26,287 bases of DNA from a virus (lineage: Duplodnaviria; Heunggongvirae; Uroviricota; Caudoviricetes): positions 1 through 26,287 of IMG/VR virus record IMGVR_UViG_2531839144_000012. One strand, given 5' to 3'. Shown here piece by piece: positions 2,488 to 23,902 of this stretch. The first letter of the stretch is position 1; each line of letters opens with the position of its first letter. The notes under the pieces are model-generated. The model was not told the origin of the DNA. It saw only the letters and a program-made list of their open reading frames with translations, and made no database searches. Both the position numbers and the translations under genes were made by a program.

Positions 2488-3357
<870 letters not shown>

Positions 3358-5186: not shown

Positions 5187-5232
5187 ACAAAAAGAATTGA
5201 GTTACAATTAAACCGCTTCTCCTCAACAGATT

Positions 5233-5649
5233 TTATTCAGCGAAGCACGGTTCATCCGGCCACTCAATATCCGGTGCAATGCTGGTATCTGTTGCCGTCA
5301 CAGCCTCGATATAATCCAGCACAACGTTAAGTCGGGTAGTTTCTTCTTGCGTCAGTTTGCGCCCGGCCTGCAGCTTTAACTGAATCACGCTGATATTAGC
5401 CATTGCTGCGTCTGTCAGCGACTGTTTTTTCTGTTCAGCGTCAGCTACCAGTTCATCATGAGAACGTTCCGGAGTGGGTGGTGCAGTAAATCCCCCGTCT
5501 GAATACACCCAGCCGATTCCGGGCTGCTCACTGATATCAGAAATATTAATGAGCTGCTGATTATCCGGCACTGTGAATTCAGCCTCGCCATCCCAGACAA
5601 TGACATTCACAACCATCCCATTTTCAATAACTGCATATGACGCATTCAT
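5233..5649 (-). CDS. Tail fibre assembly protein (Tfa)
   Basis: Start [11 protein letters not shown] (ATG 5649..5647) overlapping stop of upstream tail fibre gene; sequence and position typical of phage tail fibre assembly chaperones. Confidence 0.7.
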   Translation of the reverse strand: MNASYAVIENGMVVNVIVWDGEAEFTVPDNQQLINISDISEQPGIGWVYSDGGFTAPPTPERSHDELVADAEQKKQSLTDAAMANISVIQLKLQAGRKLTQEETTRLNVVLDYIEAVTATDTSIAPDIEWPDEPCFAE

Positions 5650-6575
5650 TATGCAAACTCCTCGATAATACAAATTCCAGCAGCACCTTTCCCGCCCGTC
5701 ATATTAGTTCCGCTATAACCGGCATCGTATGCACCACCGCCACCTGAACCATATGCCTTACCGCTAACACCACCGCCAGCGCCTGCGCGTCCACCGCCTC
5801 CCCAGTACGATGCACCACCTTTACCGCTGACGCCGATATTCCCGGACTGACCGTCGCCTCCATCTCCACCAGTGATGCGGATATCGCCAATATTCGGTAC
5901 GCCTCCGTAACCACCGTTTGTGTTTGTGATTCCTGGTTTTCCGGCACCTTCACCTCCTGGAGCAATTAACGATGAGAACGAGCTATCACCTCCCTTGTAA
6001 CCCACTGACGCACCGACACCGCCTCCACCGCCTGCACCGATAACGACAGGATAACTATTCTCTGTCAGGGTCATTGTTGAAATAATTGTTCCACCTGCTC
6101 CACCGCCTGCACCAAAAAACGTTTCGTTACTGGATGCTGCTTTGCATCCGCCTCCTCCGCCACCGCCGCCCGTTATTGTGACCCTGATCCGTTTTGTTCC
6201 TGGTGTCGGGGTGTACGTACCTGATGACGTGAAAACCCGGGTATTCACCAAGCGTCCCACGTATCCGCTTGTATCTCCCAAACCAAGGTTTTGAAGAGCC
6301 GTTTTCACCGTGCCGTCCGATTTGATATCGCCAAACGGATTTTTGCGACTTAACAGCAGCGCGCGAAGCGCGGTAAGCAGCTGGTCATGCCGCCCCTTCT
6401 CCAGGCTGGCACCGGATGCCTCCACCACGCTGCAGAGCTCTTCCTGCAACATGTCAAAGTAGTCATCATCCAGATCGGTGGCAGGCGAGCCTGTCTGGGG
6501 GTTACCACGGGTAAAACCGTTCTTACCCGCGCCGAACTTATCCTTTTGCGCGGTTTTCGTGTCTATACGATGCAT
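5649..6575 (-). CDS. Tail fibre protein with glycine-rich (collagen-like) repeat region
   Basis: Conserved phage tail-fibre N-terminus [26 protein letters not shown] followed by long Gly-rich tract; located between baseplate genes and Tfa. Confidence 0.7.
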
Positions 6576-6578
6576 GGA

Positions 6579-7163
6579 TTACTCCGGATATTTAAAAATT
6601 ACGTAGGTATGCGACGGGCAGAGTTTGTTAAGCACGCACTCGATAACGGTGTCCCCCCAGATACGCAGTGCGGAATCGCAGGGATCGCCACATGTCATCC
6701 ATGTGGTGTTGGTGGCAGCTGGCATATTGACCTGCCAGTAATACCGCCATTCCGGCGCATTCACCGCGTCAGTACAGGCCGATGAGCAGGTGAACGTGCT
6801 TTTGTCGTATCGCGTGATGGTGGCATCTGGTCTGCCCAGGGCAGCAAGCTGCGCAAGGTAAAAATCCTCATTGATGCCACCCGCCAGGTTAACCTTCGCA
6901 TCCAGCCGTTGCTGACGCTGGCGAAGGGTCTGCGTCCCTGCCGGAATACATTCATCCGGCAGGCCGCACAGACGCTCCCAGCGGTTTATCAGTTCGGTGG
7001 TGGTGCGCGGATCCAGCTCCCGCATCAGGGCATCCGCACGCTGATGAGCACGGGTTAATGACGGTGCCGCACCGGCAATCGCCGGATCGCTGGCTGACCA
7101 CGCCGGACCAGGGGGCAACAGTGCCGACAACAGACGGATGTAATCATCGTTTGTCACGTCCAT
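6579..7163 (-). CDS. Mu gp48-like baseplate/tail protein (DUF2313, YmfQ-like)
   Basis: 194-aa ORF immediately downstream of baseplate J gene in Mu-type order; sequence recalls YmfQ/DUF2313 family. Confidence 0.65.
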
Positions 7164-8212
7164 GAAATCGTCCCCAGAACCGCCAGTTCATTTTTTGCAA
7201 TGGAGATATTGTCCGCCGGAGCAAGCAACTGATGGCTGTATTCCCCGTTCGCACCGGAAATCGCTTCACTGATACGCGATACCTTAAGCTCTCCCTGCGG
7301 ATAACCATCACGCAGCAGGAATGAACGCAACTCCGCGGTGATGGCAGCCCGTATTTCCGGTGTGTCCGGCGTCACGCGGATATGAAAATCCACTTTGTGC
7401 GCCACCGGCCTGAATACATACAAATCAGAGCCTGCCACCGGGGCCAGTGGCTCGATATGTTGTCTTGCCGCCGTTTCCGTTGATTCTTCCGGAATGGGGT
7501 TAATCAGGTCACTGCTGGCAATCATCACACCGACAGTCCCCGTTCCCATCCAGTGTCGGTATGTCCATGCGCGGGTAATGCCGGGCACTTCTTTAGCCCA
7601 GACGACATAGTCCCCGTCAGCCCCGCCCTGAGGCGTCCAGTAATACCGCTCAATGACGCGGGCGCGCCACGTTTCCAGCTCTTCAGTATCAAATCCACCT
7701 GTCAGGGTATCTGCCTCGCCGGAAGACGGCAGACCATTAACCGGCGTGACCAGGATTAATGACGTACCGTCGTCAGCGTTACCGACCGCGCCTGCACTTG
7801 AGCAGGCGATCGGCACGCGCAGGACACCACCGGTGCTGGTTGCATCGGCAGTTGCCGTGTACTGAACCAGGTCATCGCGCTGAATAACACTTCCGGCGGT
7901 CACCTTCAGGCCATCGCTGACACCTTCCCAGCGCATATACCCGCTGGCAGCCGTGGCCCCCTTGCGCGGACACCGTTTCATCGCAGCATGTCGCGCCAGC
8001 CAAGACTCATCGCACAGGTCAGGCAGCATGTTCATTGCCAGATAATCGATGTACCCGTAAACCGTATGCAGCGCCGCCGCATACACCTTTGCCCGCACGT
8101 CTTCATCCATGCGCCGGAGCGTGTCGCTGACGTCCAGCCTGGCGAATAAATCGTTACGGAGCATACTGATATTTTCTGCCAGCGTCGGGCGCTGAAATTC
8201 ACTGTCCGCCAT
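7154..8212 (-). CDS. Baseplate J-like protein (Mu gp47 homologue)
   Basis: 352-aa ORF in conserved Mu tail gene order; overlapping start/stop with neighbours. Confidence 0.75.
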
Positions 8213-8627
8213 GCGTTATCGCACTCCACAGATCATCAAAAGAAATCATTACCGGTCCGTCACGACGCCAGAGAGTGATACTGTTACCCAGTTCATTAAT
8301 CCCGGTGCGGCGGATATCCAGATCAATACGGGACACCACGCCGTCATCAATCATCCATTGCAGGCATTCGCGGATATACCCCCTTACCGTCTGCACCAGT
8401 TGATTGGTCAGTTTGCTGCGCTGAAGCAGCCACAGTCGGGAGCCGTAACGGTCATTCTGTACCGCAGGCCAGGTATCCCCCCACCATCCCATCGGGAGAT
8501 CAGCGTTGTCATCAGGCTCCGCCCGCCGCCAGGTAAACAGGGAAATCACCACGGCGCGGGTCAGCGGATCCAGCTGTGCGCTGGCGCAGGTGCGTTTACC
8601 GTTCACCGTCAGCCACAGTTCCATCAT
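8199..8627 (-). CDS. Mu gp46-like baseplate protein
   Basis: 142-aa ORF between baseplate V and baseplate J homologues, as in Mu. Confidence 0.6.
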   Translation of the reverse strand: MMELWLTVNGKRTCASAQLDPLTRAVVISLFTWRRAEPDDNADLPMGWWGDTWPAVQNDRYGSRLWLLQRSKLTNQLVQTVRGYIRECLQWMIDDGVVSRIDLDIRRTGINELGNSITLWRRDGPVMISFDDLWSAITHGGQ

Positions 8628-9172
8628 GCCTCCATCGCTTTATCAGGTTTGTCGGTGTTACTGCCCTGACCGTTCTCTCTGTGACAATGCCCGTTATAGG
8701 CAAGCCGCATCGCTGACATGGTGGTACCGCCGGAGTCGCACAGGTCTTTCACCTGTCCGGTCACTTCCAGGTCCATTTCAAAACGTGCTCTGGGCGCATT
8801 GCGAAACGTGATCGTTTTACCTGCACCGTCCACCACGATCCCCTCCCGGGTCAGCGTCACAGACTGCCCCTGATCGTCATAGACAGCCACCTCACCCGTC
8901 TGCAGCCCTTTCAGGCGGTAGCGCCGGTCCGACACCGTAACAACCACCGCATGAGAACGGTCGCCATCCGGAAACAACACCACCGCTTCCGCACCGCTGT
9001 TTGCCCTTGCGGTAAAACCGTAGGGTTCAAGATGTTCAACCCCGGCTTTGGGTTCACCGGCAATCAGGGACACATCCACAGTCTGACATTTCGTGGCGGC
9101 ACTGATGCTTTTCACCACTGCCCGCCCAATCAGGCCGAGAAGTTGTCGCTGCATGGCTTCAATCGTCCTCAT
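8624..9172 (-). CDS. Baseplate assembly protein V / spike (Mu gp45-like)
   Basis: 182-aa ORF in Mu-type order; translationally coupled to neighbours. Confidence 0.65.
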   Translation of the reverse strand: MRTIEAMQRQLLGLIGRAVVKSISAATKCQTVDVSLIAGEPKAGVEHLEPYGFTARANSGAEAVVLFPDGDRSHAVVVTVSDRRYRLKGLQTGEVAVYDDQGQSVTLTREGIVVDGAGKTITFRNAPRARFEMDLEVTGQVKDLCDSGGTTMSAMRLAYNGHCHRENGQGSNTDKPDKAMEA

Positions 9173-10251
9173 CAGAACGGGTCCTCCTGTACTCTGGCTT
9201 TTTTCTTTTTCCGCGCGCCGGGGGCTTCGGGTTCAGGCAGATAAGCATCAGGTGGGCCGACACGGATTTCCGTCAGGGTGCCGTTCTGGTCCTGAGTAAA
9301 CGTGACTTCCGAGACAAGCAGTTCGGTATTGTCGAAACCACAGACCGGATCGAAGACAATCACCCGCTGGTTGGGCTGCCACAGCGTACCGTTACCCTGT
9401 CGCCAGCCCTGCACCACATAGGTGGTTTCATCCGTCCGCGCCGCCCGTTGTCGGGCTTCAAAGTCAGCACGCGCAATACAACCTGCCCCCGTGGCCTGCC
9501 CTGTCTGCCTGATATACATCGGACGGTAACGGGCAATAAATGCGTCCTCTGTGCGGGCCCGCAGCGCGGTGGTGGTGGCTTCACCGAAATCATCGTCGTT
9601 TCCGGCACGCTGCCCCGCCACCTGGTAAACAGAAAACCGCTCCCGGATACTCTTCTCCGTATCGCAGGAAAGGATGTTTTCCCCGAGTACCAGCGCAGTA
9701 TGTGCCCGCGTTGAGCCAATACCGCCAATCACCAGCCTGCCGTGCGGGTCGTCGTAAGCCAGTGCCTGCTGCTGACCGAGTATTTTGTTGATTACCTCAA
9801 TCACCGTTTCACCGTGATCAGGCTGAACATCAGGAATAACACCCGACGGCGCACCGCTGTTCACCACCTCAATGCCGAAAGGCGCAGCAAGCGCCTGCGC
9901 AATCTGCACCAGCGAGCGTCCGTTAAACTGTGTCGGTTCGGCTGCACAGTCAATCAGGTCAGCCGTCAGACTGCGTCCGGCAATACCGGTGCTGACCGAA
10001 CGGGAATCGTAACGAACGGGCGTCGCCTCCACCCAGCCGGTGATCACCAGCTCATCACCAATCAGCACTTCCACTTTTGAACCGTTTTTAATGCGCGGCT
10101 GAAGCGTGGTGATACCCTCATCTCCCGGCCACTGGCGGGTGATCTCCACACTGAAATCCCGCGCCAGCCGTTCAATACCGGCACCGATGCGCACCGATGT
10201 CCAGCCATTCCACTCCCGGCCATTTACCCGTAGCGTGACATTGTCGTTCAT
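9172..10251 (-). CDS. Mu gp44-like tail/baseplate hub protein (late control D-like)
   Basis: 359-aa ORF between DNA circulation protein and baseplate V homologues. Confidence 0.6.
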   Translation of the reverse strand: MNDNVTLRVNGREWNGWTSVRIGAGIERLARDFSVEITRQWPGDEGITTLQPRIKNGSKVEVLIGDELVITGWVEATPVRYDSRSVSTGIAGRSLTADLIDCAAEPTQFNGRSLVQIAQALAAPFGIEVVNSGAPSGVIPDVQPDHGETVIEVINKILGQQQALAYDDPHGRLVIGGIGSTRAHTALVLGENILSCDTEKSIRERFSVYQVAGQRAGNDDDFGEATTTALRARTEDAFIARYRPMYIRQTGQATGAGCIARADFEARQRAARTDETTYVVQGWRQGNGTLWQPNQRVIVFDPVCGFDNTELLVSEVTFTQDQNGTLTEIRVGPPDAYLPEPEAPGARKKKKARVQEDPF

Positions 10252-11576
10252 TGCACTGGCACCTTCAGAGGGATCACCGGCACAAAGCCGGGATGCGTAA
10301 TGGCATTACGCCGGATAATGTCCGCGTCACGCGCCGCATTATCAAACCAGGTCGCCGCCAGCACCAGCGCGGGTAAAACCTCATCCGGCGTGCGCTGAAT
10401 GATCCGTGCAGACTGTTCAAGGCGCGTGTTGATATCCGCATTCAGATCTGCTTTCACCCGGCGCAGCGCCAGAAACAGCGCATCACTGGTTGTACGGGAC
10501 AACTCCTTATCAATTGCCGTATTCAGTGTGTCGCGAATGTCAGTCAGTTCTTCCCACGTCGGCAGGTCAACCGTGCTTTTCACCGCCGGAGCATTGTTCA
10601 GTGCCGGATGCGTGACGGAAGGCCAGTCAGTGCTCTGCGCGGGTGTTGTTGCCTGCCCCACTGCGGCATTCTGCATCACCGCGGAAGTTGTTGGCGCAGG
10701 CAATCGGGTGACGGCATACGCCGCTTCGCTGATTGCGGTCGTACGAAGGGTGCTGGCAACCACATTACGCTGCTGCGTAGCCGTGGCGGTGGTTTTACTG
10801 TCCGTTTTCCAGACGCCGCGCGGTTGCAGATCGCTGCCGAGGCTGACACCGGAAAGCGTTTTGATCATGGTGACCAGGTCGCTGGCGTTACCATAAAGGC
10901 GTTTCCCGGTACGCCACATTTTCTGCACCTGCTCAACGAAATTTTTGCCTGACCATGGCGGCGGCAGAAGTACCGAGATATCCCCCTGCAACAGCCTGGC
11001 GGCATCCGATACGGCAGAATCCACCACTTTCATCGCATCAGAAACATACCCAAGCATTGTGCCGGCATTACCGACGACGTCGTTCTGCACAAAATCTGCC
11101 ACGCCATCGATACTGAAACTACTGAAACTGTCACTGATGCAGTCATCCAGTGCAGAACAGGATGACATCAGCGTCTGCGCCGTCGCCGCACCTGATGTGG
11201 GGTAAGAGAGTTCTCCCGCTTCGACAAACTTCAGGTCAAAGCGGACAATACGCCCTTCACTCTTCGATGTGCTGACCCGAACCTCTCCGTCAACACAGAC
11301 TTTCAGCTCACCGTAAGTCGGATGGACAAGCGTGCCGGGACCGGGTTTATTCAGCGCGTCAATCAGGCGATCGCGCTGGTCAAAGCAGTCATCTCCCACC
11401 ACATAAGCTGTGATGGACGGGCGGAAAGTGATTTTCCCCAGGTCTTCGGTATAGGGTTTGTCGCGGTTCGGGTATTCGTGCGTTTCCACACGACGACCGG
11501 TTCCCGTACTTTCTTCTTCAACCTTAAACGGCACACCGCGAAATGACGCGTCCTGAAGTCTGTCTTTCCACGTCAT
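10248..11576 (-). CDS. Mu-like DNA circulation protein (gp43-like)
   Basis: Start taken at MTWKDRLQDASFRGVPF (ATG 11576..11574, GGAG RBS upstream); immediately downstream of tape measure. Confidence 0.7.
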   Translation of the reverse strand: MTWKDRLQDASFRGVPFKVEEESTGTGRRVETHEYPNRDKPYTEDLGKITFRPSITAYVVGDDCFDQRDRLIDALNKPGPGTLVHPTYGELKVCVDGEVRVSTSKSEGRIVRFDLKFVEAGELSYPTSGAATAQTLMSSCSALDDCISDSFSSFSIDGVADFVQNDVVGNAGTMLGYVSDAMKVVDSAVSDAARLLQGDISVLLPPPWSGKNFVEQVQKMWRTGKRLYGNASDLVTMIKTLSGVSLGSDLQPRGVWKTDSKTTATATQQRNVVASTLRTTAISEAAYAVTRLPAPTTSAVMQNAAVGQATTPAQSTDWPSVTHPALNNAPAVKSTVDLPTWEELTDIRDTLNTAIDKELSRTTSDALFLALRRVKADLNADINTRLEQSARIIQRTPDEVLPALVLAATWFDNAARDADIIRRNAITHPGFVPVIPLKVPVQ

Positions 11577-11636
11577 ATAAACTCCGTACATAAAAAATCC
11601 CACCGGAGTGGGACTCATTAACAGATTAATTTTTCA

Positions 11637-13472
11637 TTACCTGCCAAAGCGCGTATAGCCAACATCATGGCTGACATCAAAACCGCTGGATCGCGTTTCC
11701 ATAACCCGCATACCCGGAGGCGAATTCACAAAAGAGACCTTGATCTCACCATCAACTTTTGGCGCAGAAGCTTTGTTGATCATGAAGGGATTCGGGCCTG
11801 TGGCACCGGAGGCGTTGTTTGCCTGAGCCGGATCCACCGCCGGATAAGGAGTGTATCCCCGTGGCGGTATTCCCGTCCCATAAGCATCATAAGCACCCGC
11901 GCCCCACTGCGCCGAGTTAATGGCATCGACCGTGTCACCGGAACTGTCGGTAAACCATTCAATAATCGGCTTCAGCTTGTCCCACATATCCTGAAACCAC
12001 TTAACAACCGGTCCCCAGTTATTGATCACCATCCCCAGCGGCGACCAGGCAAAAACCTTCTTCAGAAGTTCCCAGCCTGCCTCAAAATAAGGACCAATAG
12101 TTTCCCAGAGCTTCTTGAAATAAGGTCCGACAACATCCCAGTTAGTGATAATTAATCCCGCAGCCAGAGCAATCGCCGTCGCAATCATGCCAATCGGCGT
12201 CATCGACATGATCCTGCTGACAATACTGATGGCACCGCCCACGCCCATCAATCCCAGTTTCAGAATCGCAAGACCGGCAGCAAGCCCGACAACGCCGCGA
12301 ATAACCCGGGGATTTTCATCCGCAAACTTCGTGAATTTCTCCCCCAACTCCCCCAGCCACTGCGTGATGTTCTTAGCGTCACCAGAAAATGCGCCGCCAA
12401 TAGCCGCAAGGCCGTTAGTTGCGGTCCCCGTCATTGCCTCCCACAGGTTGGACAGCGTACCAAGCTGGGCCTGAACACGTTTATTCAGGCTGGCCTGTTT
12501 ATTCATCTTCTGCTGGATCTGATCGTAGCCATCCTTTCCTTTATCGATCAGCGCATTGACCACCTGAAGGGTTTCGGCATCATCACCAAATATTGCCTTA
12601 AGTACACCTGTTCGCTTAACGTCGGTCAGTTTTCGCAGCTTTGCCAGTTGCCTGAACATGTTATCAAGACCGCCAAAACTTCCTTTGCCGTCAGTAAAAT
12701 CGAGCTGTACCCCGAGTTTCTGGCGGGCCATAACTTTATTAACGTCCCTGATTTTCTTAACGCTTAATCCGGACTGGATAACTTTTCGCAGGGCATTACC
12801 TGCCGACTCCCCGTTCATCCCCATCTGATCCATCATGACGCTGATGGGGGCAAGGCTCTGTGCAGCCTGAAGACCATCCTTGTTCACCATCTTCAGAACA
12901 GAACTGGTTTTAGTGAAGAAGGACAACATGTTGGTATCGTCAACGCCCAGATAAAACGCCTTCTGGATAGTGTCGAACAGCCCCATCATGTCTTCTGACG
13001 CCGTTCCGGTAGCATCCTGCATCTTTGCAGCAAACTCAGCAGCCGCTTCCGGTGTTTTTTTCAGTTGTACCGCAAGATAAGCTGTCGCTTTACCCACACC
13101 ACCCAGAATGTTTTCTGCCGGGATCCCCTGACGCACCAGCATCTGCATCATGTTCTGGAAATCAGCCGTTGTACCAGGTAGCTGGTTACCCAGGCCAATA
13201 GCCAGTTTATTGATGTCCTGAAAGCTCTTTCCAACCTCGCCGTTCGCATCCATCATGGCAACTTTCAGCCCGGTGGCGGCGTTTTCCTGATCGGCATAAG
13301 ATTTCAGGGAAAGCGTCAGACCCGCTGCCAGTCCGCCACCAAGCGCCAGCCCACCCTGTGACGCTTCTTCCGCCTGGCGTTTAAATCCCCGGATTTTCTT
13401 TTGCATTTTCGACAGCGCGGGAGAAAGCCTGTCGACACCGGTGATCAACGCCTTAAGCTCAAATTCAGCCAT
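11637..13472 (-). CDS. Tail tape measure protein
   Basis: 611-aa ORF with Ala/Gly-rich helical repeats and C-terminal hydrophobic segment, downstream of tail chaperone. Confidence 0.85.
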   Translation of the reverse strand: MAEFELKALITGVDRLSPALSKMQKKIRGFKRQAEEASQGGLALGGGLAAGLTLSLKSYADQENAATGLKVAMMDANGEVGKSFQDINKLAIGLGNQLPGTTADFQNMMQMLVRQGIPAENILGGVGKATAYLAVQLKKTPEAAAEFAAKMQDATGTASEDMMGLFDTIQKAFYLGVDDTNMLSFFTKTSSVLKMVNKDGLQAAQSLAPISVMMDQMGMNGESAGNALRKVIQSGLSVKKIRDVNKVMARQKLGVQLDFTDGKGSFGGLDNMFRQLAKLRKLTDVKRTGVLKAIFGDDAETLQVVNALIDKGKDGYDQIQQKMNKQASLNKRVQAQLGTLSNLWEAMTGTATNGLAAIGGAFSGDAKNITQWLGELGEKFTKFADENPRVIRGVVGLAAGLAILKLGLMGVGGAISIVSRIMSMTPIGMIATAIALAAGLIITNWDVVGPYFKKLWETIGPYFEAGWELLKKVFAWSPLGMVINNWGPVVKWFQDMWDKLKPIIEWFTDSSGDTVDAINSAQWGAGAYDAYGTGIPPRGYTPYPAVDPAQANNASGATGPNPFMINKASAPKVDGEIKVSFVNSPPGMRVMETRSSGFDVSHDVGYTRFGR

Positions 13473-13647
13473 GTGTGCGTTTCTCCTGCTCTATCCTGTT
13501 TGCCTGACTGACCAGTAAGGGAATTTCACTGATCGGCATATTCAGCAATTCGAAAGGATTAATGCGCCAGTAGCTGGCGCAGTCAAAGAAGCGATCAGTG
13601 AGGTATTCAGCCGTCAGGCCTGGAGGAAAAAACCAGCCACAAGCCAC
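13465..13647 (-). CDS. -1 frame extension of tail assembly chaperone (frameshift product analogous to P2 E+E' / lambda GT)
   Basis: Open in -1 frame from slippery heptamer T TTT TTC (minus strand, plus coords 13626-13632) through to tape measure start. Confidence 0.5.
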   Translation of the reverse strand: MACGWFFPPGLTAEYLTDRFFDCASYWRINPFELLNMPISEIPLLVSQANRIEQEKRTHG

Positions 13648-13883
13648 GCCGCTGCATTCAGGTCTGCCGGAGACATCTGGTCGACAGAGCTTTGCGGCAC
13701 TTTCGCCAGCCGCACAATGTATTTCGACACCACATGCGCCAGAAGTTTGACTGACTCATCCTGATTCATCTGGTAGGGATACCCCAGCTCGCGGACATCC
13801 TTCCCGGTGGGCTCATCAAACTCCAGTACGGAGAGTGTCTCGCCATGAGCAGTAATCGGTTTCTTTAACTCAAGCTCTTTCAT
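13614..13883 (-). CDS. Tail assembly chaperone (Mu gp41 / P2 E-like), zero-frame product
   Basis: 89-aa ORF between tail tube and tape measure; ends just after a TTTTTTC slippery site. Confidence 0.6.
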   Translation of the reverse strand: MKELELKKPITAHGETLSVLEFDEPTGKDVRELGYPYQMNQDESVKLLAHVVSKYIVRLAKVPQSSVDQMSPADLNAAAWLVAGFFLQA

Positions 13884-15735: not shown

Positions 15736-15889
15736 CGGTATTCACCTTTTTATTCACGCGCCGGATATCACCCGCTGCTTCACGGCGCAGCCAGTAGTTG
15801 TTCTCGTCAACATTTCGCCCTTCGGCGGGCAAAAGGTCGCCGCGGGCAGGGTCAGGAACTGACCGCCCTTTAACAGGTTTGACAAACAT
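15719..15889 (-). CDS. Small conserved protein upstream of sheath (DUF2635-like), 56 aa
   Basis: Hand-translated MFVKPVKGRSVPDPARGDLLPAEGRNVDENNYWLRREAAGDIRRVNKKVNTDDDKL; below the ORF track length cutoff; stop overlaps sheath start. Confidence 0.5.
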   Translation of the reverse strand: MFVKPVKGRSVPDPARGDLLPAEGRNVDENNYWLRREAAGDIRRVNKKVNTDDDKL

Positions 15890-15897
15890 GAGGATCC

Positions 15898-16458
15898 TCA
15901 GGAAGGAAGGGTTATTTCGGTGTGATGTTCGATATCGCCGTCAGGCCCGTTACCGAGATCGAGATAATCAACATCAATCGCCAGCGTTCGCAGTTCATCC
16001 AGACTGTTCAGCTCATCCTGCTGGCGGGTATCGTCTTCGGTCAGCTCGCTGATGACCGAAAAATCGAACTGATAAATCAGCTCATGACGATTCAGATCCA
16101 GCAGCGTGCCGCCGTCATAGGTAATCGGGTTACCGCACGCTTCCGGGTTCCAGCCCAGAAGGGCCTTAAAGAGCATCTGCCGGACTTCGTCCACCACATC
16201 ATACGAAGCAAACTGACCGCGCTCATCACGTCCGTTACTCAGTATGACAACCACGGAGAAGCCCTCTTTCAGCTCCTGCCAGTAGTCGGTCTGGCTTTTG
16301 TTTTCTCCCGGAGAGTCATCACCCGGTACCACATACGCCGCCGGGAGTCTCAGCTTTCCGACCTCCGGCAGATTTTTGAACTGTGCCGCGCCTGCCACCC
16401 GGTTTTCAAAATACGGGCAGCGGGCACGCAGCGCAGCAATAACAGGCGTCAGTTTCAT
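15898..16458 (-). CDS. Mu gp37-like protein (DUF1834-like)
   Basis: 186-aa ORF in conserved position upstream of sheath cluster. Confidence 0.5.
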   Translation of the reverse strand: MKLTPVIAALRARCPYFENRVAGAAQFKNLPEVGKLRLPAAYVVPGDDSPGENKSQTDYWQELKEGFSVVVILSNGRDERGQFASYDVVDEVRQMLFKALLGWNPEACGNPITYDGGTLLDLNRHELIYQFDFSVISELTEDDTRQQDELNSLDELRTLAIDVDYLDLGNGPDGDIEHHTEITLPS

Positions 16459-16961
16459 CTGCGTCGTCGCTCCGGCTTCAGTGATTTACGTAATTCCCGC
16501 GCCAGAAAATAGCGTGTCCAGCTGCGGTTCTTTTCAAGCGTTTCCACCATAAAGTTATTACGTGGAGCCAGCCGCCAGCCGCTGCCACCGGATGCACCAC
16601 GATGATGACTACGACGACGTTTTGCTCCTCCCCGGACACCAAAAAACAGAAACGCCGGATAGAAGTCACCAGAGATCATCCGGTTCCCCTTCCCGTTGCG
16701 CTGGTTAGGGGCAATGCGTGTCATAAAACCAGGGCGATGTTTACTGGCTCTGGGTACCATGTAACCAATCGAACGAGCCAGGCGTCCGGTCTGATAACCG
16801 GGGTTTTCACCCGGTGCCGACCGCGCACGGCGCATCACCAGCCGACGGGCATCACGCATATGACGCTGCCCAATCGTGACAAACGCCCGCCTGACACGGG
16901 CACGGTTAAAGCGCATCTCCGCGGGCTGCTGAACATCAACGTGAAAAAAGGGAGTCGCCAT
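16455..16961 (-). CDS. Arg-rich virion morphogenesis / tail completion protein
   Basis: 168-aa basic protein in head-tail joining region; family assignment uncertain. Confidence 0.45.
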   Translation of the reverse strand: MATPFFHVDVQQPAEMRFNRARVRRAFVTIGQRHMRDARRLVMRRARSAPGENPGYQTGRLARSIGYMVPRASKHRPGFMTRIAPNQRNGKGNRMISGDFYPAFLFFGVRGGAKRRRSHHRGASGGSGWRLAPRNNFMVETLEKNRSWTRYFLARELRKSLKPERRRR

Positions 16962-17346
16962 TGCTGCCTCCGTGACTCTGCGTAAATTCGCCCAGTTCCG
17001 TACACTCCAGCAGCAGAAAGCGCCGCGCCCCGTTCAGATCGCGCTGACGTTTCACCCGGTACACACTGTCATCACAGACCACCTCATAATCAGCAGTGAT
17101 CCCCCGGCGGTAGCGAATGGTGATGTAATGGGTGATGGCGTCTCCGGTCTGCGCGGTTTCCTGCCAGGTGGTGGCACTGGTCTGGATAACCTTCGCCCAT
17201 GCCCGGAACGCAACCGGGTATTGAGGCTCCACGCCAAAGTTATCCGCGGGCATATCCACCCGCTGTCGGATCAGGACGCGTTTATTCAGTTCGCCGGGGT
17301 CCGGCAGAATGTAGGTTGCGCTGGTCTGCGCCTGACGAATTTTCAT
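16936..17346 (-). CDS. Head-tail adaptor (head closure) protein
   Basis: 136-aa ORF downstream of connector gene; sequence features (IRYR motif) recall head-tail joining family. Confidence 0.55.
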   Translation of the reverse strand: MKIRQAQTSATYILPDPGELNKRVLIRQRVDMPADNFGVEPQYPVAFRAWAKVIQTSATTWQETAQTGDAITHYITIRYRRGITADYEVVCDDSVYRVKRQRDLNGARRFLLLECTELGEFTQSHGGSNGDSLFSR

Positions 17347-17666
17347 TGCGGAAAGTACCTGTACGGGCCGACAAGCCAGCCAAAACTCTGCGGCATGTCG
17401 AGTTTCTCTACTTCCGTAACCGACGAGCGGTTTTCGTAAAAATGGCTGATAAGCATCAGCATCCCCAGACGAATATCATCCGGCAGGTACAGCCCGTCCG
17501 GATCGCTGTCCGGAATGGTTTCATCCGGTGCATAGAGCTTCCGGTTCAGATACGTTTCCGTCCGCTTTTGCGCCGCACAGGCCAGCAGTTGCAGATGGCG
17601 GTCATCAGCATCGAAATCCTCATCCAGCCGGAGTTGGGCTTTAATCTCTTCCATTGTCAGAAGCAT
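17343..17666 (-). CDS. gp6-like head-tail connector protein
   Basis: 107-aa ORF with N-terminal EEIKAQLRLDEDFDADD typical of gp6-like connector proteins. Confidence 0.6.
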   Translation of the reverse strand: MLLTMEEIKAQLRLDEDFDADDRHLQLLACAAQKRTETYLNRKLYAPDETIPDSDPDGLYLPDDIRLGMLMLISHFYENRSSVTEVEKLDMPQSFGWLVGPYRYFPQ

Positions 17667-17668
17667 AC

Positions 17669-17869
17669 TCAGCCCTCTTTACTGGTCGTGGCTTTTTTCT
17701 CTTTTGCTGCTTTACTGCTTTTTGCACTGGTTCCGCGCTCTGCTAAACCGGCCTGAAGTGCAATCTCCTGCACCCGGGCAGGAAGCGCCCCGTCGTCATA
17801 CTCACCGGCCCGAATGACCTCAACACGCATACCGTCCGGTGACCATTTCAGATCTTGTTTCAGGATCAT
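17669..17869 (-). CDS. Small hypothetical protein downstream of major capsid gene
   Basis: 66-aa ORF in operon context only; Lys-rich C-terminus. Confidence 0.35.
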   Translation of the reverse strand: MILKQDLKWSPDGMRVEVIRAGEYDDGALPARVQEIALQAGLAERGTSAKSSKAAKEKKATTSKEG

Positions 17870-17918
17870 GATTCTTCACCCGTCAGAACAGGGGGCGCGG
17901 TTCCGCGCCCCTGAATGA

Positions 17919-19124
17919 TTACGCCGCAGCAATCTTCAGCAGTTTGATGGCCTGCGAATCGACCAGCATCCCGCCGGTGCGCTTGGTGGTATAAAAACCG
18001 ACAAACGGTTTATTGGTGTACGGGTCACGCAGAATGCGGGTGCCGATACGGTCAACGATGGTGTAACCCCGTTTGAAGTTACCAAATGCAATGGCTTTCG
18101 CATCAGCGGCGATATCCGGCATCTGCTCGTTTTCAGCGATACCGTAACCCGCCAGAGAGGACGGCTGCCCCAGTTCCAGCCCCGGACGCCACAGATAGTT
18201 ACCCTCGCTGTCTTTAAGCAGACGGATGGCAAAAAGGCTGTTGTTGTTCATCATGAACTTCGCGCCAGTGCGGTGTGCCTTACGCAGCGTGTAAATCAGT
18301 TTGATAATGGCGTCTGCGGTCACCGCCGTCGCTTCGCCGGATACAATATGCTGAAGTTTGCCGAACGCCCGGACCTTATCGGTTTCATCAGTGGATTCAT
18401 ACGCCAGGAACCCTTTCGGCTTCTTGGTACCATCGCCGGTGGTAAAGGCAATTTCTTCCTGTTCAGCAAACTCGGTTGCCAGCTCGCTGTTGATCCAGGC
18501 CTCCACGTTGAAGAAGGCATCGTCCAGCATTTTCTGGGTAGCCTGCGGGTTGCCGTAGATTTCCCCCATGAGAGGTTCAATCAGCTCCAGTCTGGAGGTG
18601 GCAGTCTGGGATCGCGTATCCGTTTCCCCCACCCATCCGGAAGCCGTGCCGCCCAGATTCACCAGTTTTTTGTAGTCGGAACCGCCAACGGTGATCACCG
18701 TGGCTTCCTGACGCATCACCACTTCATCTTTCAGCAGGTTGAGAATGTTGCGATCCAGTTCTTCCGGCACGGCGTAGCCACCGTCTTCATCGGTGCCCAC
18801 CTGCAATGCCTTACGCTCCAGATCGCGCAGACCATCTTCACGGCCTTTACGCAGGAAGCCCACAAAAGCCTCTTTATGCTCAGTGGCCAGTTTATTTTGC
18901 ACACCACCTGCCGGACGTTTCAGCTCAAGCAGCTCTTTTTCAAGGTCGCTTTTGAGATTTTCCAGCTCGCTGAGTTTCCCGTTCAGGGTTTCCACCTGCC
19001 CGGCAAGTTTGCCTTTTTCCTGCTCAATCGCATCCACGCGCTTGTCGTTCTTTGCCTTGAAGTCGTCAAACTTCTGCTGCAGCTCCTGCGCGACCTGTTC
19101 GACATCTTTAATATCAACCGCCAT
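17919..19124 (-). CDS. Major capsid protein, HK97 family
   Basis: 401-aa ORF with N-terminal coiled-coil-like delta domain followed by capsid core; follows prohead protease. Confidence 0.9.
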   Translation of the reverse strand: MAVDIKDVEQVAQELQQKFDDFKAKNDKRVDAIEQEKGKLAGQVETLNGKLSELENLKSDLEKELLELKRPAGGVQNKLATEHKEAFVGFLRKGREDGLRDLERKALQVGTDEDGGYAVPEELDRNILNLLKDEVVMRQEATVITVGGSDYKKLVNLGGTASGWVGETDTRSQTATSRLELIEPLMGEIYGNPQATQKMLDDAFFNVEAWINSELATEFAEQEEIAFTTGDGTKKPKGFLAYESTDETDKVRAFGKLQHIVSGEATAVTADAIIKLIYTLRKAHRTGAKFMMNNNSLFAIRLLKDSEGNYLWRPGLELGQPSSLAGYGIAENEQMPDIAADAKAIAFGNFKRGYTIVDRIGTRILRDPYTNKPFVGFYTTKRTGGMLVDSQAIKLLKIAAA

Positions 19125-19138
19125 CGTATTTCTCCTGA

Positions 19139-19789
19139 TTAGAAGTTCAGATTTTTCAGTGCATTCAGTGCAGAGCCCACATCCTCAGCGTCGCGCAGGG
19201 ACAGTGCGCCATAGCCCCCGGCCATGAATGCTTTGGCCTGGGTACGGGAGAGTCCGACATCACGCAGGACTCTTTCGATTTTTTTCTGTTCAGGGATTTC
19301 CCCGCGGGCCAGCGCGTTCTTGACGTCGCTGATCCGCGCCTCGTCGTTAGACGGAAACGTCACCAGACTGACTTCCCAGAGGTCGATTTCTTTCAGCAAA
19401 AAGGCTTCTTTCGTCCGGTCGTATTCCCAGTCTTTCAGGACGTACCCAATAGAAAGGCCGGTTAACGAACCGGCCTTCATGTGTGCATGTGCGCGTTTTG
19501 CCAGGGGATCATCATCAATGAGCAACCGCCCCCTGACGTAAAGCCCGACATCGTCTTCCTTCATTTCGGTGTAAACTCCGATGGGCTCATCCATGCGGTG
19601 CTGCCAGAGCAGCGCAGGTAACGCTTTTCTGTCACTCCATGCCCGCAGGGAAGCAGCAAATGCCCCGGACATCACCACATCATCGTGGCTGTCCTTTACA
19701 CCAAAGACGGAGCCATACCCTTCAAACTCACCGGAGTCACTGACAGATTTCAGACTCAGCGGTACATCAAGACGTTGTTTCGTCTGCAT
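19139..19789 (-). CDS. Prohead protease, HK97 family
   Basis: Start taken at MQTKQRLDVPL (ATG 19789..19787, AAGGA RBS); ORF track start 19825 has no RBS; between portal and capsid. Confidence 0.85.
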   Translation of the reverse strand: MQTKQRLDVPLSLKSVSDSGEFEGYGSVFGVKDSHDDVVMSGAFAASLRAWSDRKALPALLWQHRMDEPIGVYTEMKEDDVGLYVRGRLLIDDDPLAKRAHAHMKAGSLTGLSIGYVLKDWEYDRTKEAFLLKEIDLWEVSLVTFPSNDEARISDVKNALARGEIPEQKKIERVLRDVGLSRTQAKAFMAGGYGALSLRDAEDVGSALNALKNLNF

Positions 19790-21008
19790 TGGCGTTATCC
19801 TTCTGCTTACCGGCTTTACTGCCATCGGAGGGTTTCGTGGTCATGTTCATCGGTGTGAGATAGACATCACCACCGGGACGCGGATTCATATCTTCCAGGT
19901 CGCGGCAGTCATTGGGAGAGTAAATTCCCCAGTTGATCCCGGTGGCGTAGGCTTCAAAACGGGACTTCATATCCCCGCGCAGTAACGCCCCGGCGTTAAA
20001 TTTGGCGTAATAAACGCCCTGCTTACTTTTTCGTACCAGTCCGGTGTTGATCCGCTGTTCGATGCGGGTCAGATACGGCACCAGTGAATAGTTGATAAAT
20101 CCCAGCCCCAGCTCTTCGATATTGTTGAAGGTGGCGCGATCGGTGTTCTGCACCATGTGCAACGGCACCCGGAACAGACGACAGATTTCTTCAAGCTGAA
20201 ACTTGCGGGTTTCCAGGAACTGGCTGTCCTCGGCGTTCAGCGCCATCGACTTCCAGTCCAGCCCCATCTCAAGGATCATCGGGCGGTGAGCATTGCCAAG
20301 CCCGGTGTGACGCTCCTCAAAATCTTTCTTCAGGCGCTCATAAGCCTGATCTGACAGCGTCTGCTCTGTACGCAACACACCCGACGTCACCGCGCCATTG
20401 CTGAACAGTCTGGCCCCGTGCTCTTCGGTCGCTGCCGCCAGCGATATTGCCTCGCGGGCATAGGCGATGGGATTCAGCCCCACCAGTCCGTCCAGCGTCA
20501 GCGTGCGCACATGCCAGATATCCTCCTGGCTCAGTACATCCGTGGAGCCATCCGGGAATGTGACCTGATAGATCGGCTCCCAGCTACTGTTAAGCTTCGG
20601 TACCACACAGCCGGGATCGACGGGCAGCAGTTCAGCCACTTCGCCAAATGCTTTCACTTTGTAGGCGTAAAAGTTTCCCCGCAGGCACAGACAGGTGACC
20701 ACCAGCTCCCAGAACTCCTGTGGCGTCATATAGCCATTGGGATGCGTGGAGATCAGCTTATGCAGACGTTCGCCAGTGGCTCTCTGCTTCAGGCTGCCGT
20801 TCAGGTGATACAGGTTGCAGGGCAACATCCCGACCGACTCTGCCAGCACCCTGACACAGGAAAAAACCGCCGTCAGTCGCATGGCCCGCTGGCTGCTGAT
20901 CTGCTTTCCGGTATAGGTGTCGTAGGACAACCCGATAGCATCCGCCAGCTCTGCTGGCGTGGTCATCGGTGCGTCACTTTTTCGTTGAAATAATCCCGAA
21001 AAGAACAC
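19767..21008 (-). CDS. Portal protein, HK97 family
   Basis: 413-aa ORF; GTG start at 21008 with GGAGG RBS (alternative ATG at 20966); downstream of large terminase. Confidence 0.85.
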   Translation of the reverse strand: MFFSGLFQRKSDAPMTTPAELADAIGLSYDTYTGKQISSQRAMRLTAVFSCVRVLAESVGMLPCNLYHLNGSLKQRATGERLHKLISTHPNGYMTPQEFWELVVTCLCLRGNFYAYKVKAFGEVAELLPVDPGCVVPKLNSSWEPIYQVTFPDGSTDVLSQEDIWHVRTLTLDGLVGLNPIAYAREAISLAAATEEHGARLFSNGAVTSGVLRTEQTLSDQAYERLKKDFEERHTGLGNAHRPMILEMGLDWKSMALNAEDSQFLETRKFQLEEICRLFRVPLHMVQNTDRATFNNIEELGLGFINYSLVPYLTRIEQRINTGLVRKSKQGVYYAKFNAGALLRGDMKSRFEAYATGINWGIYSPNDCRDLEDMNPRPGGDVYLTPMNMTTKPSDGSKAGKQKDNANADETTS

Positions 21009-21190
21009 TATTTACCTCCGCCGACAGACGACTGTGTACGGTCAAGATATCGCGCCACCAGCCACGACCAGAACAGGCACAACGCCCCGGCAACAACAAA
21101 CCCCGCCGGGGGATAAATCAGCCAGGCACCATACGCCAGCAAAAGCGCCCCCAGCACGCCCACCAGAGGCGCGAGAATCAGCATGATCAT
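21008..21190 (-). CDS. Small hydrophobic (two predicted TM segments) protein between terminase and portal
   Basis: 60-aa ORF with GAGG RBS 6 nt upstream of ATG 21190; stop overlaps portal start (TAGTG). Confidence 0.4.
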
Positions 21191-21201
21191 AATTACCTCA
21201 G

Positions 21202-22935
21202 TTAAAGCGAGCGGATCCCATAGGACTCAATGTGGTCAGACAACGTGTCTTCTTTCTCGTACAGCATGGCTCTGCCAACCGCCATAATCAGCGCAACTGC
21301 ACCATCGATTTTGTTTTCCGCCTGCTCTTTGACGGGCTTCACTAAATCATCGTTACCTGGCATGTTTTTGCCGACCACATTGCCGATACACCAGGTCATG
21401 ATGGGATTGCCGTCATGATGAAAGCGTCCCGATTCAATCGCTGCCTCCAGCTCTTTCATCGGGTCGGACATATTGGCGAAGTTCTGGACTATAGTAACGG
21501 GATTCAGGTCTTCATCAGCAAGGTCATGTGACAGCCCGGTCGCTCCGAAAGGGTCGATGGGTGACTCACTGACCGGGCTGATTTTGTTCGCCGCTTTGGC
21601 CTCTTCGAGGATGTAGCGATAATCCACCTCTGCACCATCGGTAACGGTCAGAACGCCCATTTCCACCCATTTCTGAAAGCGTTCGGCTGTCCGGCGATCT
21701 TCATTTTTCTCGACGCTATACACCGTGTCATACGGTACCCAGAAACGCGGGGCCACACTGTAGTAATGCGTTTTACCGTCAATCTCGCGGGTATAAAGTC
21801 GCGCCATGCTGTTCATATCCAGCTTACGCGCCAGGTCAAAGGCCAGAATGCACGGCTGCCCCTCGAACTGCTCAAGAGTCAGTGATTTATCCTCGCAGCT
21901 CTGCCAGCTCACCAGGTTGAAATACGCCGAACGCGCCGACACCCAGATATTGAGGTGTTTTGTTTTAAAGACGTTTGCCAGACGGGCGTTATTTTTCGCA
22001 CGCTGCTGCTGACTTAACAAAAATTCGCGATAAACCGACACGCCAATATTTGGATTGGCTTTTTCCAGCACCTGCGGGTCGGTCCAGTCGTCACCTTCAT
22101 CAACGGTATAGATGATCCCGAACAGTTCATCGTTAGGCACCGAGCCGTTGAGCATCTCGATGACTTCCCGCCGTTTGTCGTAGCACGGCCCCTCAATGTT
22201 GTACCCGGCGGTGGTGATGGCCCACATCAGTGGCTGACGTCGCGCCCCCATCCCGGTAAGCATTGTGGTATAAAGCGCATCGGTGGCATGCTCGTGATAT
22301 TCATCAACCACGGCACAGTGGGGTGATGAACCATCACCTGGGTTGCCGATCAGCGGTTCAAACCGCGCGCCATCCTCCGGACGGTTCATGTTTGAGGCGT
22401 TAACCTCAATCCCGAAAGCTTCCGTCAGCATGGGTGTGCGTTTACACATCAGTCGCGCCGGGCGAAAGACTTCCCACGCCTGTTTCTCTGTCGTGGCACC
22501 GGAATACACTTCCGCGCCAAACTCGTTATCACAGGCAAAACAATACAGGGCGACACCGGCAGAGATTGCCGATTTGCCGTTCTTACGGGGGATTTCGGTA
22601 TACACCTCACGGAAGCGGCGCAGCCGGGAGCCTTTATTGACCCAGCCAAACGCACAGCAGATCACAAAGAGCTGCCACGGTTCCAGCGTGATGGGCATCC
22701 TCTTGAATGCCCACTCCCCCTTGGTGTGTGGCAACAGCTGAATAAATTTCGCGGCCCGTTCAGCCAGGTCCTTGTCGAAGCGGTAACGAAACGACTTACT
22801 TTTTTCCGCCATCAGGTCATCAAGATGGCGCTGGCAGGCCTGAATCACAAACTGGCAGGCCACAATCTTTCCGCGCACGACATCACGGGCATACTGATTG
22901 GCAGCATTTACGTTGGGGTAAGATTTCCGGCTCAT
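21202..22935 (-). CDS. Terminase large subunit
   Basis: 577-aa ORF with ATPase region (PRKNGKS Walker A-like) and C-terminal nuclease region; ATGA overlap with small subunit stop. Confidence 0.9.
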
Positions 22936-23426
22936 GATTCGATGATTTTCAGAAACGGGTTAGTGGCTTTCTTCTGCCCCGCCAGGCCAATCAGACGCTG
23001 GCGGCTGCTGGGGTCGAGTCCGAGCATTGCCCCCGTGCTGCTCATCTCGGACTCCTGTTCTTTCTTGGCGGTCAGCTCCGGATTTTTGACCATACCGCCC
23101 ATTGCACCGGTGATGGTGTTGCCCTGTCTGGCAATATTTTTCACGGCACGTCGCCAGAACTCATAGGCCACGCACCACCGCTCAAGTACCGCTAGGTCAG
23201 TCACGCACAGCAGGCCCTGACCGCAGAGTTCTTTGGTTGTCAGTTGCCACATGATCGTGGCGAGAGGGAGATCCTCTTCAGCGAACCACTCCGGTGGCTC
23301 AACACCTTTGATGGGCGTAAAAACAGGTTCATCTTTGTTCAGGGCTCGCTTGCCGGGGTTTCCGGACAGCGCCTTGCGCGCCGTTGGCTTGGGGCGACGC
23401 CCGGAACGCCCCGCCGTTCCAGCCAT
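22932..23426 (-). CDS. Terminase small subunit (P27-like)
   Basis: Start ATG 23426..23424 preceded by AGGAG; basic N-terminus [14 protein letters not shown]; immediately upstream of large terminase. Confidence 0.75.
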
Positions 23427-23464
23427 ATGCGGCACTCCTGGTTAAATTTCATTTTTCGCGGGTA

Positions 23465-23525
23465 TAAAAAAACGATGGGGCGGGCAGTCCGGAAGACGTC
23501 AGGTCACAGAGATTTGACCCGCCCC
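23465..23525 (-). terminator. GC-rich stem (GGGGCGGG...CCCGCCCC) with T7 tract on minus strand between HNH and terminase small subunit; candidate terminator and/or part of cos region
   Basis: 8-bp G/C stem with inner GGTCA/TGACC pairing and run of 7 T on minus strand seen directly. Confidence 0.35.
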
Positions 23526-23551
23526 TCCCCTCAGACAGTTGAGAATTATTA

Positions 23552-23902
23552 TCACTTTAGCCGTTCACGGGCCGTCTTCGCCTTATGACACGGCCAGCAC
23601 AAACTCTGCAGATTGCAGTCAGCATCAGTGCCGCCATGCGCTTTAGGGATAATGTGGTCAACGGTTTTCGCCTCACGCACCACACCGGCACGCAGGCACA
23701 ACTGGCACAGGCCTTTGTCACGCTTCAGCACACGCGCGCGGATAACGTCCCACTTCGAACCATAACCGCGCTGGTGTCGGGACTGTCCAGGTTTGTACTG
23801 CTTCCAGCCTTCGCTTTTGTGGCTTTCGCAGTAGCCTGACGGGTCTGTGGTTGTAGAGCGGCAGCCGCGAACACGGCAGGCTTTTGGGGTTCGTGAGGGC
23901 AT
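23552..23902 (-). CDS. HNH endonuclease (terminase-associated)
   Basis: 116-aa Cys/His-rich protein with DHIIPKAHGG and CWPCH motifs; placed immediately upstream of terminase genes as in HK97-like phages. Confidence 0.8.
   Translation of the reverse strand: MPSRTPKACRVRGCRSTTTDPSGYCESHKSEGWKQYKPGQSRHQRGYGSKWDVIRARVLKRDKGLCQLCLRAGVVREAKTVDHIIPKAHGGTDADCNLQSLCWPCHKAKTARERLK

Follow-up and report, generated by a model that had tools for sequence, protein, structure and literature searches.

The window analysed here is a stretch of 26,287 nucleotides of viral DNA (IMG/VR record IMGVR_UViG_2531839144_000012), and the block under study lies at positions 5233-23902. In the open reading frame (ORF) map, this block is a single minus-strand operon of 26 intact ORFs that runs unbroken from 23902 to 5233, with stops and starts overlapping or abutting, and scans against Pfam and PHROGs gave names to almost all of its genes. 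The block almost certainly represents the complete late (virion) operon of a temperate myovirus prophage of the SfII/SfI/SfIV/SfV type, integrated at thrW. A reading made from the sequence alone (the sequence-only reading) had named these genes and their positions; the ORF map and Pfam placed them where it had, on the minus strand, intact and tightly packed. Listed in operon order from 23902 downwards, with the attachment site last, the features are as follows (percentages are amino acid identities).

23552..23902, minus strand: HNH endonuclease, packaging accessory beside cos/terminase (Pfam HNH, E = 5e-15)
23436..23551, minus strand: intergenic segment, probable cos site, from the ends of linear phage records
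22932..23435, minus strand: small terminase subunit (TerS), P27/Terminase_4 family (Pfam, E = 2e-21)
21202..22935, minus strand: large terminase subunit (TerL; Pfam ATPase and nuclease domains)
21008..21190, minus strand: 60-aa (amino acid) membrane protein, YmfR-like (phrog_502, E = 2.5e-28)
19767..21008, minus strand: portal protein, HK97 family (Phage_portal, PF04860, E = 6e-108)
19139..19825, minus strand: prohead serine protease S78 (Peptidase_S78, PF04586, E = 1.5e-31)
17919..19124, minus strand: major capsid protein with an N-terminal delta-like domain (Phage_capsid, PF05065, residues 115-398, E = 4e-79)
17669..17869, minus strand: 66-aa protein accompanying the head cassette (phrog_1020)
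17343..17666, minus strand: head-tail adaptor, HK97 gp6 type (PF05135 and phrog_40, both also found in HK97 gp6)
17250..17350, no strand: recombination breakpoint between the head cassette and the neck/tail block (sliding DNA identity)
16936..17346, minus strand: head closure protein, HK97 gp7 type (PF05521 and phrog_25, both also found in HK97 gp7)
16455..16961, minus strand: neck protein, Neck1/tail completion type (phrog_879)
15898..16458, minus strand: tail terminator, at the position of Mu gp37 (PF23840, E = 1e-26; phrog_209)
15719..15889, minus strand: DUF2635 protein, Mu gp38 homologue (Pfam, E = 1e-16; 42% to Mu gp38)
14239..15735, minus strand: tail sheath (three sheath Pfam domains; 36% to Mu gpL, E = 7e-84)
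13883..14239, minus strand: tail tube (PF10618, E = 3e-33, a family shared with Mu gpM)
13465..13883, minus strand: tail assembly chaperone (13614-13883) with a putative -1 frameshift extension (Phage_TAC_7, PF10109, E = 1e-16)
11637..13472, minus strand: tape measure (PhageMin_Tail, PF10145, E = 1e-26)
10248..11618, minus strand: DNA circulation protein, Mu N homologue (DNA_circ_N, PF07157, E = 6e-34; 43% to Mu N, N-terminal domain only)
9172..10251, minus strand: baseplate hub, Mu P/gp44 homologue (GpP and gp44 Pfam domains; 35% to Mu P)
8624..9172, minus strand: baseplate spike/assembly protein, Mu gp45 homologue (PF06890, E = 1.5e-24; 30% to Mu gp45)
8199..8627, minus strand: baseplate wedge, Mu gp46 homologue (PF07409, E = 5e-33; 45% to Mu gp46)
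7154..8212, minus strand: Baseplate_J-like protein, Mu gp47 homologue (PF04865, E = 4e-52; 30% to Mu gp47)
6579..7163, minus strand: baseplate wedge, Mu gp48 homologue, YmfQ (PF10076, E = 1e-26; 29% to Mu gp48)
5649..6575, minus strand: tail fibre, a 308-aa ORF with a conserved N-terminal anchor of ~100 aa and an exchanged glycine-rich C-terminal domain (PF21722, residues 117-305)
5233..5649, minus strand: tail fibre assembly protein, Tfa (Caudo_TAP, PF02413, E = 7e-21; the ORF itself extends to 5673)
492..539, no strand: attR, a 48-bp copy of the 3' end of tRNA-Thr (thrW), matching the thrW region of E. coli fS58a exactly (48/48)

Annotated relatives point to other probable start positions for Tfa (5649), TerS (23426) and the protease (19789). 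The G+C content is 51-59% over the virion run, 31-42% at its left (~3000-5000) and 39% at its right (~24000-25000).

To compare the operon with its two archetypes, we searched the 26 proteins by tblastn against the complete genomes of Mu (NC_000929) and HK97 (NC_002167), and for family comparison the Mu and HK97 proteins were also scanned against the same Pfam and PHROG libraries. Eight proteins matched Mu and the matches were colinear; those to HK97 were colinear as well, and no protein matched both genomes. The chance of eight out of eight Mu matches falling in the same order is about 1 in 40,000, and the E-values were far past chance. Together with the comparison with SfV, this bore out the mosaicism proposed in the sequence-only reading: the head matches HK97 only, and the eight tail proteins match Mu only. 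An HK97-type head had likewise been claimed, and is seen in the colinear HK97 matches of HNH, TerL, portal, protease and capsid and in the gp6 and gp7 families of the adaptor and head closure proteins. Identities to HK97 gp2, gp3, gp4 and gp5 were 26%, 32%, 36% and 26%, respectively, with E-values from 2e-28 (TerL to gp2) to 3e-7. PF04860, PF04586 and PF05065 all scored well over their cut-offs, and the order TerS, TerL, portal, S78 protease, capsid includes no separate scaffold gene.

The lineage was traced by megablast against deposited phages and by pairwise blastn, with amino acid identities per gene from tblastn and sliding-window DNA identity for the joint. The window was 97.7% identical in DNA to SfII over 6274-23551 (17,278 bp) in one piece, 97.3% to SfI and 97.1% to Escherichia phage vB_EcoM-689R6 (689R6 below), whereas SfV matched in two blocks only, at 96.4% (6274-17667) and 98.0% (21263-23493). 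All 24 of 24 proteins from TerS to the N-terminal domain of the fibre were 93-100% identical to those of SfII, those from TerS to gp48 over all or nearly all of their length (98-100% coverage). Close relatives also lie in E. coli chromosomes: 30 of 5426 complete genomes covered at least 80% of the first 25 kb of the window.

The left end of the window points to the same group. A related prophage of E. coli fS58a is flanked by thrW-proA on one side and, on the other, by a junction equivalent to window position 492. The copy of the thrW end at 492-539 therefore identifies a thrW-integrated prophage of the SfI/II/IV/V group, of which the window holds the attR end. A tRNA scan of the window found none, as the att site copies just part of the tRNA; alignment of the thrW region of the related lysogen located it instead. 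SfI, SfII, SfIV and SfV integrate at thrW, with conversion genes adjoining int-attP and a 46-bp attP reported for SfI, SfIV and SfV (PMC3851460), to which the att core of the window corresponds. We found nothing that contradicts an SfII/SfV-type assignment. An HK97-style head combined with a Mu-style contractile tail is the known, defining architecture of the SfI/SfII/SfIV/SfV family, and the copy in this window is an ordinary one.

Among the head and packaging genes, the HNH protein was 42% identical to HK97 gp74 over 48 aa, 95% to its counterpart in phage 689R6 and 67% to that in Klebsiella phage ST101-KPC2phi6.3 (phi6.3 below). TerS was 99% identical to those of SfV and SfII and 88% to that of Salmonella phage ST64B, and TerL was 99-100% identical to those of SfV and SfII. 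Linear records of SfV and SfIV terminate at window position ~23493 and that of SfII at 23551 (megablast, pairwise blastn), which places a probable cos site in the segment between HNH and TerS; SfI/II/IV/V share an identical cos site (PMC3851460). HNH, TerS and TerL are all present and 95-100% identical to those of relatives.

The portal protein was 99% identical to those of SfII and ST64B, the protease 100% to SfII and 98% to ST64B, and the capsid protein 99% to SfII, 97% to ST64B and 84% to phi6.3. The 60-aa protein was 100% identical to that of SfII, and the 66-aa protein was 98%, 82% and 42% identical to those of SfII, ST64B and phi6.3. In SfV and phage SKA5, by comparison, the portal is 28%, the capsid 25% and the adaptor 61-62% identical, and the protease and the two small proteins were undetected by tblastn. 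With portal, protease and capsid at 99-100% to SfII and portal and capsid at 25-28% to SfV, the head cassette is therefore the SfII/SfI/ST64B allele. The SfV lineage proposed in the sequence-only reading thus stood with regard to overall DNA identity (97.7% to SfII; 96.4% and 98.0% to SfV) and the thrW att site, but the head cassette is not that of SfV.

Sequence searches against solved structures gave chains 8cez and 8fql ("Portal protein", 424 aa, E = 1e-51) as nearest to the portal and the capsid of the gene-transfer agent of Rhodobacter capsulatus (6tb9, E = 2e-75) as nearest to the capsid. Residues 1-114 of the capsid protein showed a weak coiled-coil-type match only, and the Pfam domain begins at residue 115. 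The HK97 cleavage site K103/S104 aligned with K105/A106 of the window capsid in a low-identity alignment (20%).

Of the tail genes, the sheath was most similar to the solved 495-aa tail sheath chains 9khy and 9ki1 (E = 4e-80), and the hub to 3cdd (MuSo2, E = 3e-52) and 1wru (Mu gp44, E = 5e-50). The tape measure was 99-100% identical to those of SfV and SfII. At the chaperone locus, the last part of the chaperone gene is overlapped by a small -1-frame ORF (13465-13647), this frame being open to 13465, and a canonical slippery heptamer, T TTT TTC, lies at 13632-13626 in the correct register, 5 codons upstream of the chaperone stop. Judging from this layout, the locus probably has the usual two-product arrangement of tail chaperones, with frameshifting inferred. 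The gap between the tape-measure and DNA-circulation genes (11595-11636) carries a terminator-like hairpin at 11616-11595, the sole scanned terminator coinciding with a terminator annotated in SfII. In relatives, the same gap holds an inserted gene, for an OB-fold protein in E. coli a15 and for a hypothetical protein in phage SKA5, and it appears to be a moron insertion point within the tail operon.

A number of observations qualify a description of the block simply as the head of HK97 with the tail of Mu. "HK97-like", at identities of 26-36%, should be taken as a family-level statement, and the capsid alignment with HK97 gp5 spans 42% of the length. A PDB search with the capsid returned no HK97 gp5 chains at E <= 1e-3, the gene-transfer-agent capsid being far nearer. 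The HK97 cross-link residues K169/N356/E363 aligned to R171, a gap and T380. As it stands, this speaks against chainmail cross-linking, but the alignment, at 20% identity, is weak and unreliable. On the Mu side, the fibre showed no similarity to Mu S when searched by tblastn against the Mu genome, and the tape measures are of different families (PF20155 in Mu gp42, PF10145 in the window). The same holds for the tail terminator, which is an analogue of Mu gp37 by position only (PF23840/phrog_209 versus PF08873/phrog_490). The neck protein at 16455..16961 has no Pfam family and falls outside both the HK97 gp10 and the Mu G families. Over 4900-24100, a promoter scan gave 6 promoter-like sites versus 11.3 expected and a terminator scan 22 terminator-like sites versus 19 expected, neither of which stands out from shuffled sequence or is informative. 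The claim that the tail genes follow Mu exactly was accordingly sustained for the gene order, with eight colinear matches and a shared tube family, but not for the fibre, Tfa, tape measure and terminator, which are of other families or affinity.

The fibre and Tfa depart from the Sf phages as well. Pairwise blastn showed that DNA homology to these phages ends at 6274, and only the first third of the fibre matched SfII, SfV and SKA5, with the anchor 95-96% identical to those of SfII and SKA5. Tfa had no tblastn match in SfV or SfII; its C-terminal half was 70% identical to HK97 Tfa, and PF02413 is shared with Mu U. The Mu arrangement of S/U fibre genes with an invertible G segment was not found, and there is no invertase gene in the window. 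The fibre tip and Tfa (5233-6273) were probably swapped together, in what would be the usual exchange of a host-range cassette.

Sliding DNA identity located the head-tail joint. Against SKA5 and SfV, identity was 95-100% below ~17300, 76-57% across the adaptor and ~30-40% past 17650; against ST64B it was 53-78% below 17300 and 82-92% above, a drop from ~88% to ~65% at 17.3 kb. These opposite steps at ~17300 place the recent exchange point at the boundary between the adaptor (17343-17666) and the head closure gene (16936-17346). The second edge of the exchanged cassette lies at ~21.26 kb, within the last codons of TerL (pairwise blastn). Protein by protein, the adaptor was 93% identical to that of SfII, 61-62% to those of SfV and SKA5 and 37% to that of phi6.3, and the head closure protein was 100% identical to that of SKA5 and 60% to that of ST64B, with no match in phi6.3. 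At the level of families, the HK97 type reaches as far as 16936 and the Mu type sets in at 15889; the two neck genes in between are of neither type. The sequence-only reading had put the junction at 15.9-17.3 kb; the breakpoint at ~17.30 kb falls on the upper edge of that interval and the family-level transition at 16936-15889 also inside it.

The idea that ST64B donated the head while having another type of tail was rejected, since this phage has the same HK97/Mu architecture and marks a change in divergence level at 17.3 kb only. Klebsiella phage ST101-KPC2phi6.3 differs in this respect. From HNH to capsid its proteins were 62-86% identical to those of the window, and from head closure onward nothing is shared; the tail genes annotated in it form a non-contractile-type set (with an HK97 gp10-family protein, DUF3168, a 3.4-kb tape measure and DUF1833) without a sheath. 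The identity steps, together with the gene content of this phage, therefore indicate exchange of exactly the head and tail modules. The more distant relatives of the capsid were mostly phages of the Gram-positive hosts Streptococcus and Streptomyces (phiC31) and of Vibrio, Burkholderia and Brucella, among them Bcep176, which has a lambda-like tail gene set; those of the sheath were Mu, D108 and other Mu-like phages of Vibrio, Shewanella, Haemophilus and Burkholderia. On these comparisons, the virion module is best read as a mosaic in which the portal-to-adaptor cassette (~17.3-21.26 kb) has served as a unit of exchange within the lineage and the fibre tip with Tfa (5233-6273) as another.

Alternatively, the HK97/Mu combination could be old and vertically inherited, with no exchange relevant here and "mosaic" an artefact of choosing HK97 and Mu as references. 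Head and tail do share their nearest relatives (SfII, SfI and 689R6) at 97-98% DNA identity across the block, and ST64B, Yersinia YeP phages and Edwardsiella phage EPP-1 are among the relatives of the capsid and/or the sheath, which shows the combination to be stable across genera. We nevertheless consider this account improbable, in view of the sharp steps at ~17.30 kb and ~21.26 kb against SfV and SKA5, the step in the opposite direction against ST64B, and the joining of the same packaging/head block to a non-contractile-type tail gene set in ST101-KPC2phi6.3. That the block is a defective prophage remnant (cf. e14 in E. coli K-12) or a tailocin-type tail cluster rather than a working virion module is very improbable: close relatives carry the e14-derived names ymfQ, ymfR and stfP in RefSeq and a fibre annotated as a pseudogene plus a separate ORF, and Pseudomonas tailocins have been co-opted from Mu/SfV-like tails (PMC4542187), but in the window every one of the 26 genes is open, no head or packaging gene is missing, one 308-aa ORF encodes the fibre, the block lies between lysis genes and attR, and the 22 proteins from TerS to gp48 match those of the isolated, plaque-forming SfII (98-100% coverage, 93-100% identity), HNH and Tfa having no counterpart in the SfII stretch compared.

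Returning to the mosaic operon of an SfII/SfV-type prophage, its workings can be proposed from the protein families. HNH, TerS and TerL would cut concatemeric DNA at cos, between HNH and TerS, and package it through the HK97-family portal. The capsid would assemble without a separate scaffold, its N-terminal delta-like domain being removed by the S78 protease, and the gp6-type adaptor and gp7-type head closure protein would seal the head and dock the tail. The latter would be a Mu-type contractile tail built from sheath, tube, a chaperone made in two forms via -1 frameshifting and tape measure, and ending in a simple baseplate composed of the homologues of N, P, gp45, gp46, gp47 and gp48. The fibre, with its exchangeable glycine-rich tip, and the Tfa chaperone would set the host range.

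A further proposal, which we regard as unlikely, has two parts: that the adaptor/head-closure boundary (~17.30 kb) is a preferred, functionally tolerated joint, and that a gene pair at 24078-25265, described below, has an undescribed defence or counter-defence function. Were such a joint preferred, a single packaging/head cassette may couple either to a Mu-type contractile tail, as in this element, SfII and ST64B, or to a non-contractile-type tail, as in ST101-KPC2phi6.3. The gp6-type adaptor would then be a universal interface, and the two neck proteins at 15898-16961 would be adapters particular to the HK97/Mu hybrid of this element.

Between attR and the tail genes (540-5232), no gtrA-gtrB-gtr(type) cluster was found; the slot is occupied by genes for a GNAT protein, an HTH regulator, PD-T4-3 and Acyl_transf_3. 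The missing gtr cluster is a difference in accessory cargo and has no bearing on the virion module. Conversion genes near att had been expected from the sequence-only reading; what remains of this is one Acyl_transf_3 gene beside attR, with no gtrABC and no relationship to the acyltransferase of SfII. The gene in question encodes a membrane acyltransferase (3905-4972, plus strand; Pfam E = 2e-24; G+C content 31-34%), whose best match among deposited phages was 38% identical, in a faecal phage contig. It was considered as the orthologue of SfII_25 and rejected, as it lies in the same slot but with insignificant BLASTP similarity; a role as a putative surface-polysaccharide/O-antigen O-acetyltransferase is plausible.

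In the same region, the ORF at 2533-3357 (plus strand) encodes a GIY-YIG (LEM-3-like) protein that matches the PADLOC model of the anti-phage defence protein PD-T4-3 nearly end to end (E = 3.8e-140); the prophage carries it as cargo. Closer to attR, a convergent pair at 1007-2238 consists of a GNAT acetyltransferase gene (1007-1450, plus strand) and a gene for an HTH_3 regulator with a weak cupin-like C-terminus (1471-2238, minus strand). This pair was found at 98-99% identity in other E. coli genomes; E. coli a15 and fS58a have in its place a 2.8-kb SIR2-family gene, so the attR-adjacent region looks like a swap site for cargo/defence genes.

On the other side of attR, the minus-strand ORF at 1-339 encodes the N-terminus of a P4-type integrase (Arm-DNA-bind_3, E = 9e-24), reading away from att, which is not an SfV-type int. 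In E. coli a15 the same integrase arrangement runs on into HTH, AntA/AntB, DUF4222 and Ash-family genes, which points to another integrative element lying in tandem at the duplicated end of thrW.

To the right of the operon, an opposite-strand pair of moron genes (24078-25265, plus strand) lies in the island of 39% G+C between HNH and the lysis genes. It encodes a 182-aa protein without a family and a 186-aa ClpP-like protein (Pfam CLP_protease, E = 2e-12), and was found in 15 of the 5426 complete E. coli genomes, with lysC within the same match in the eight records listed. PADLOC gave no matches for the ClpP-like pair, GNAT or the acyltransferase. The remainder (25293-26287, minus strand) is a partial lysis cassette. 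One of its ORFs is of Rz type and matches the Rz1-like LysC family of Pfam in its C-terminal part; another gene aligned with the endolysin of relatives (glycoside hydrolase family 24), although its own ORF had no Pfam match. The lysis genes were 86-91% identical to those of relatives, below the level of the virion module.

As a discovery, the block has little value; its practical value lies in annotation, with the window identified as a thrW-integrated SfII-type prophage. The analysis also separates a conserved scaffold from exchangeable parts, namely the head cassette, the fibre tip with Tfa and the cargo beside attR. Here, that cargo comprises a defence gene (PD-T4-3) together with a putative acyltransferase of another kind, in place of the classical gtr cluster for serotype conversion.

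The HK97-head and Mu-tail plan of SfV-type phages was published in 2002-2003 (Allison et al., as cited in PMC3851460 and PMC4542187). Portal, protease and capsid share more than 90% mutual identity in SfI, SfII and SfIV and "very little identity" with SfV, all being of the HK97 family (PMC3851460). The two alleles of the head cassette were thus already noted in 2013, and all essentials here are already published.

Compared with the known systems, the operon shares with HK97 the HNH gene beside the terminase, TerL, portal, S78 protease, capsid, gp6-type and gp7-type proteins and the lack of a separate scaffold gene, at identities of 26-42%, but HK97 has a non-contractile lambda-like tail. With Mu it shares the order gp38, L, M, gp41, gp42, N, P, gp45, gp46, gp47, gp48, fibre, Tfa on one strand; unlike Mu, the window has no Mu head, transposase or invertible G segment, and its Tfa is nearer the lambda/HK97 type. 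ST64B (NC_004313) has the same overall architecture and the near-identical portal, protease and capsid described above, whereas its tail proteins are 23-85% identical, the tape measure being at 23%. SfV (U82619/NC_003444) has the same HK97-type-head and Mu-type-tail plan and the same att site, with the terminase at 99% and the proteins from head closure to gp48 at 92-100% amino acid identity, those of the tail at 98-100% (SKA5 likewise for tail and neck); it carries gtrA/B/V, and its DNA homology to the window is absent over 17667-21263. The closest system is SfII (NC_021857/KC736978; with SfI and SfIV), which has the same gene order, the same portal/protease/capsid allele and an acyltransferase-family gene in the same slot beside Tfa. 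SfII has gtrABC and ISSfl9 and the window neither; relative to SfII, the fibre C-terminal domain and Tfa are replaced, and the PD-T4-3, GNAT and HTH regulator genes stand in place of its cargo. The departures from published phages are therefore limited to accessory parts: the fibre tip, Tfa and a cargo without gtrABC.

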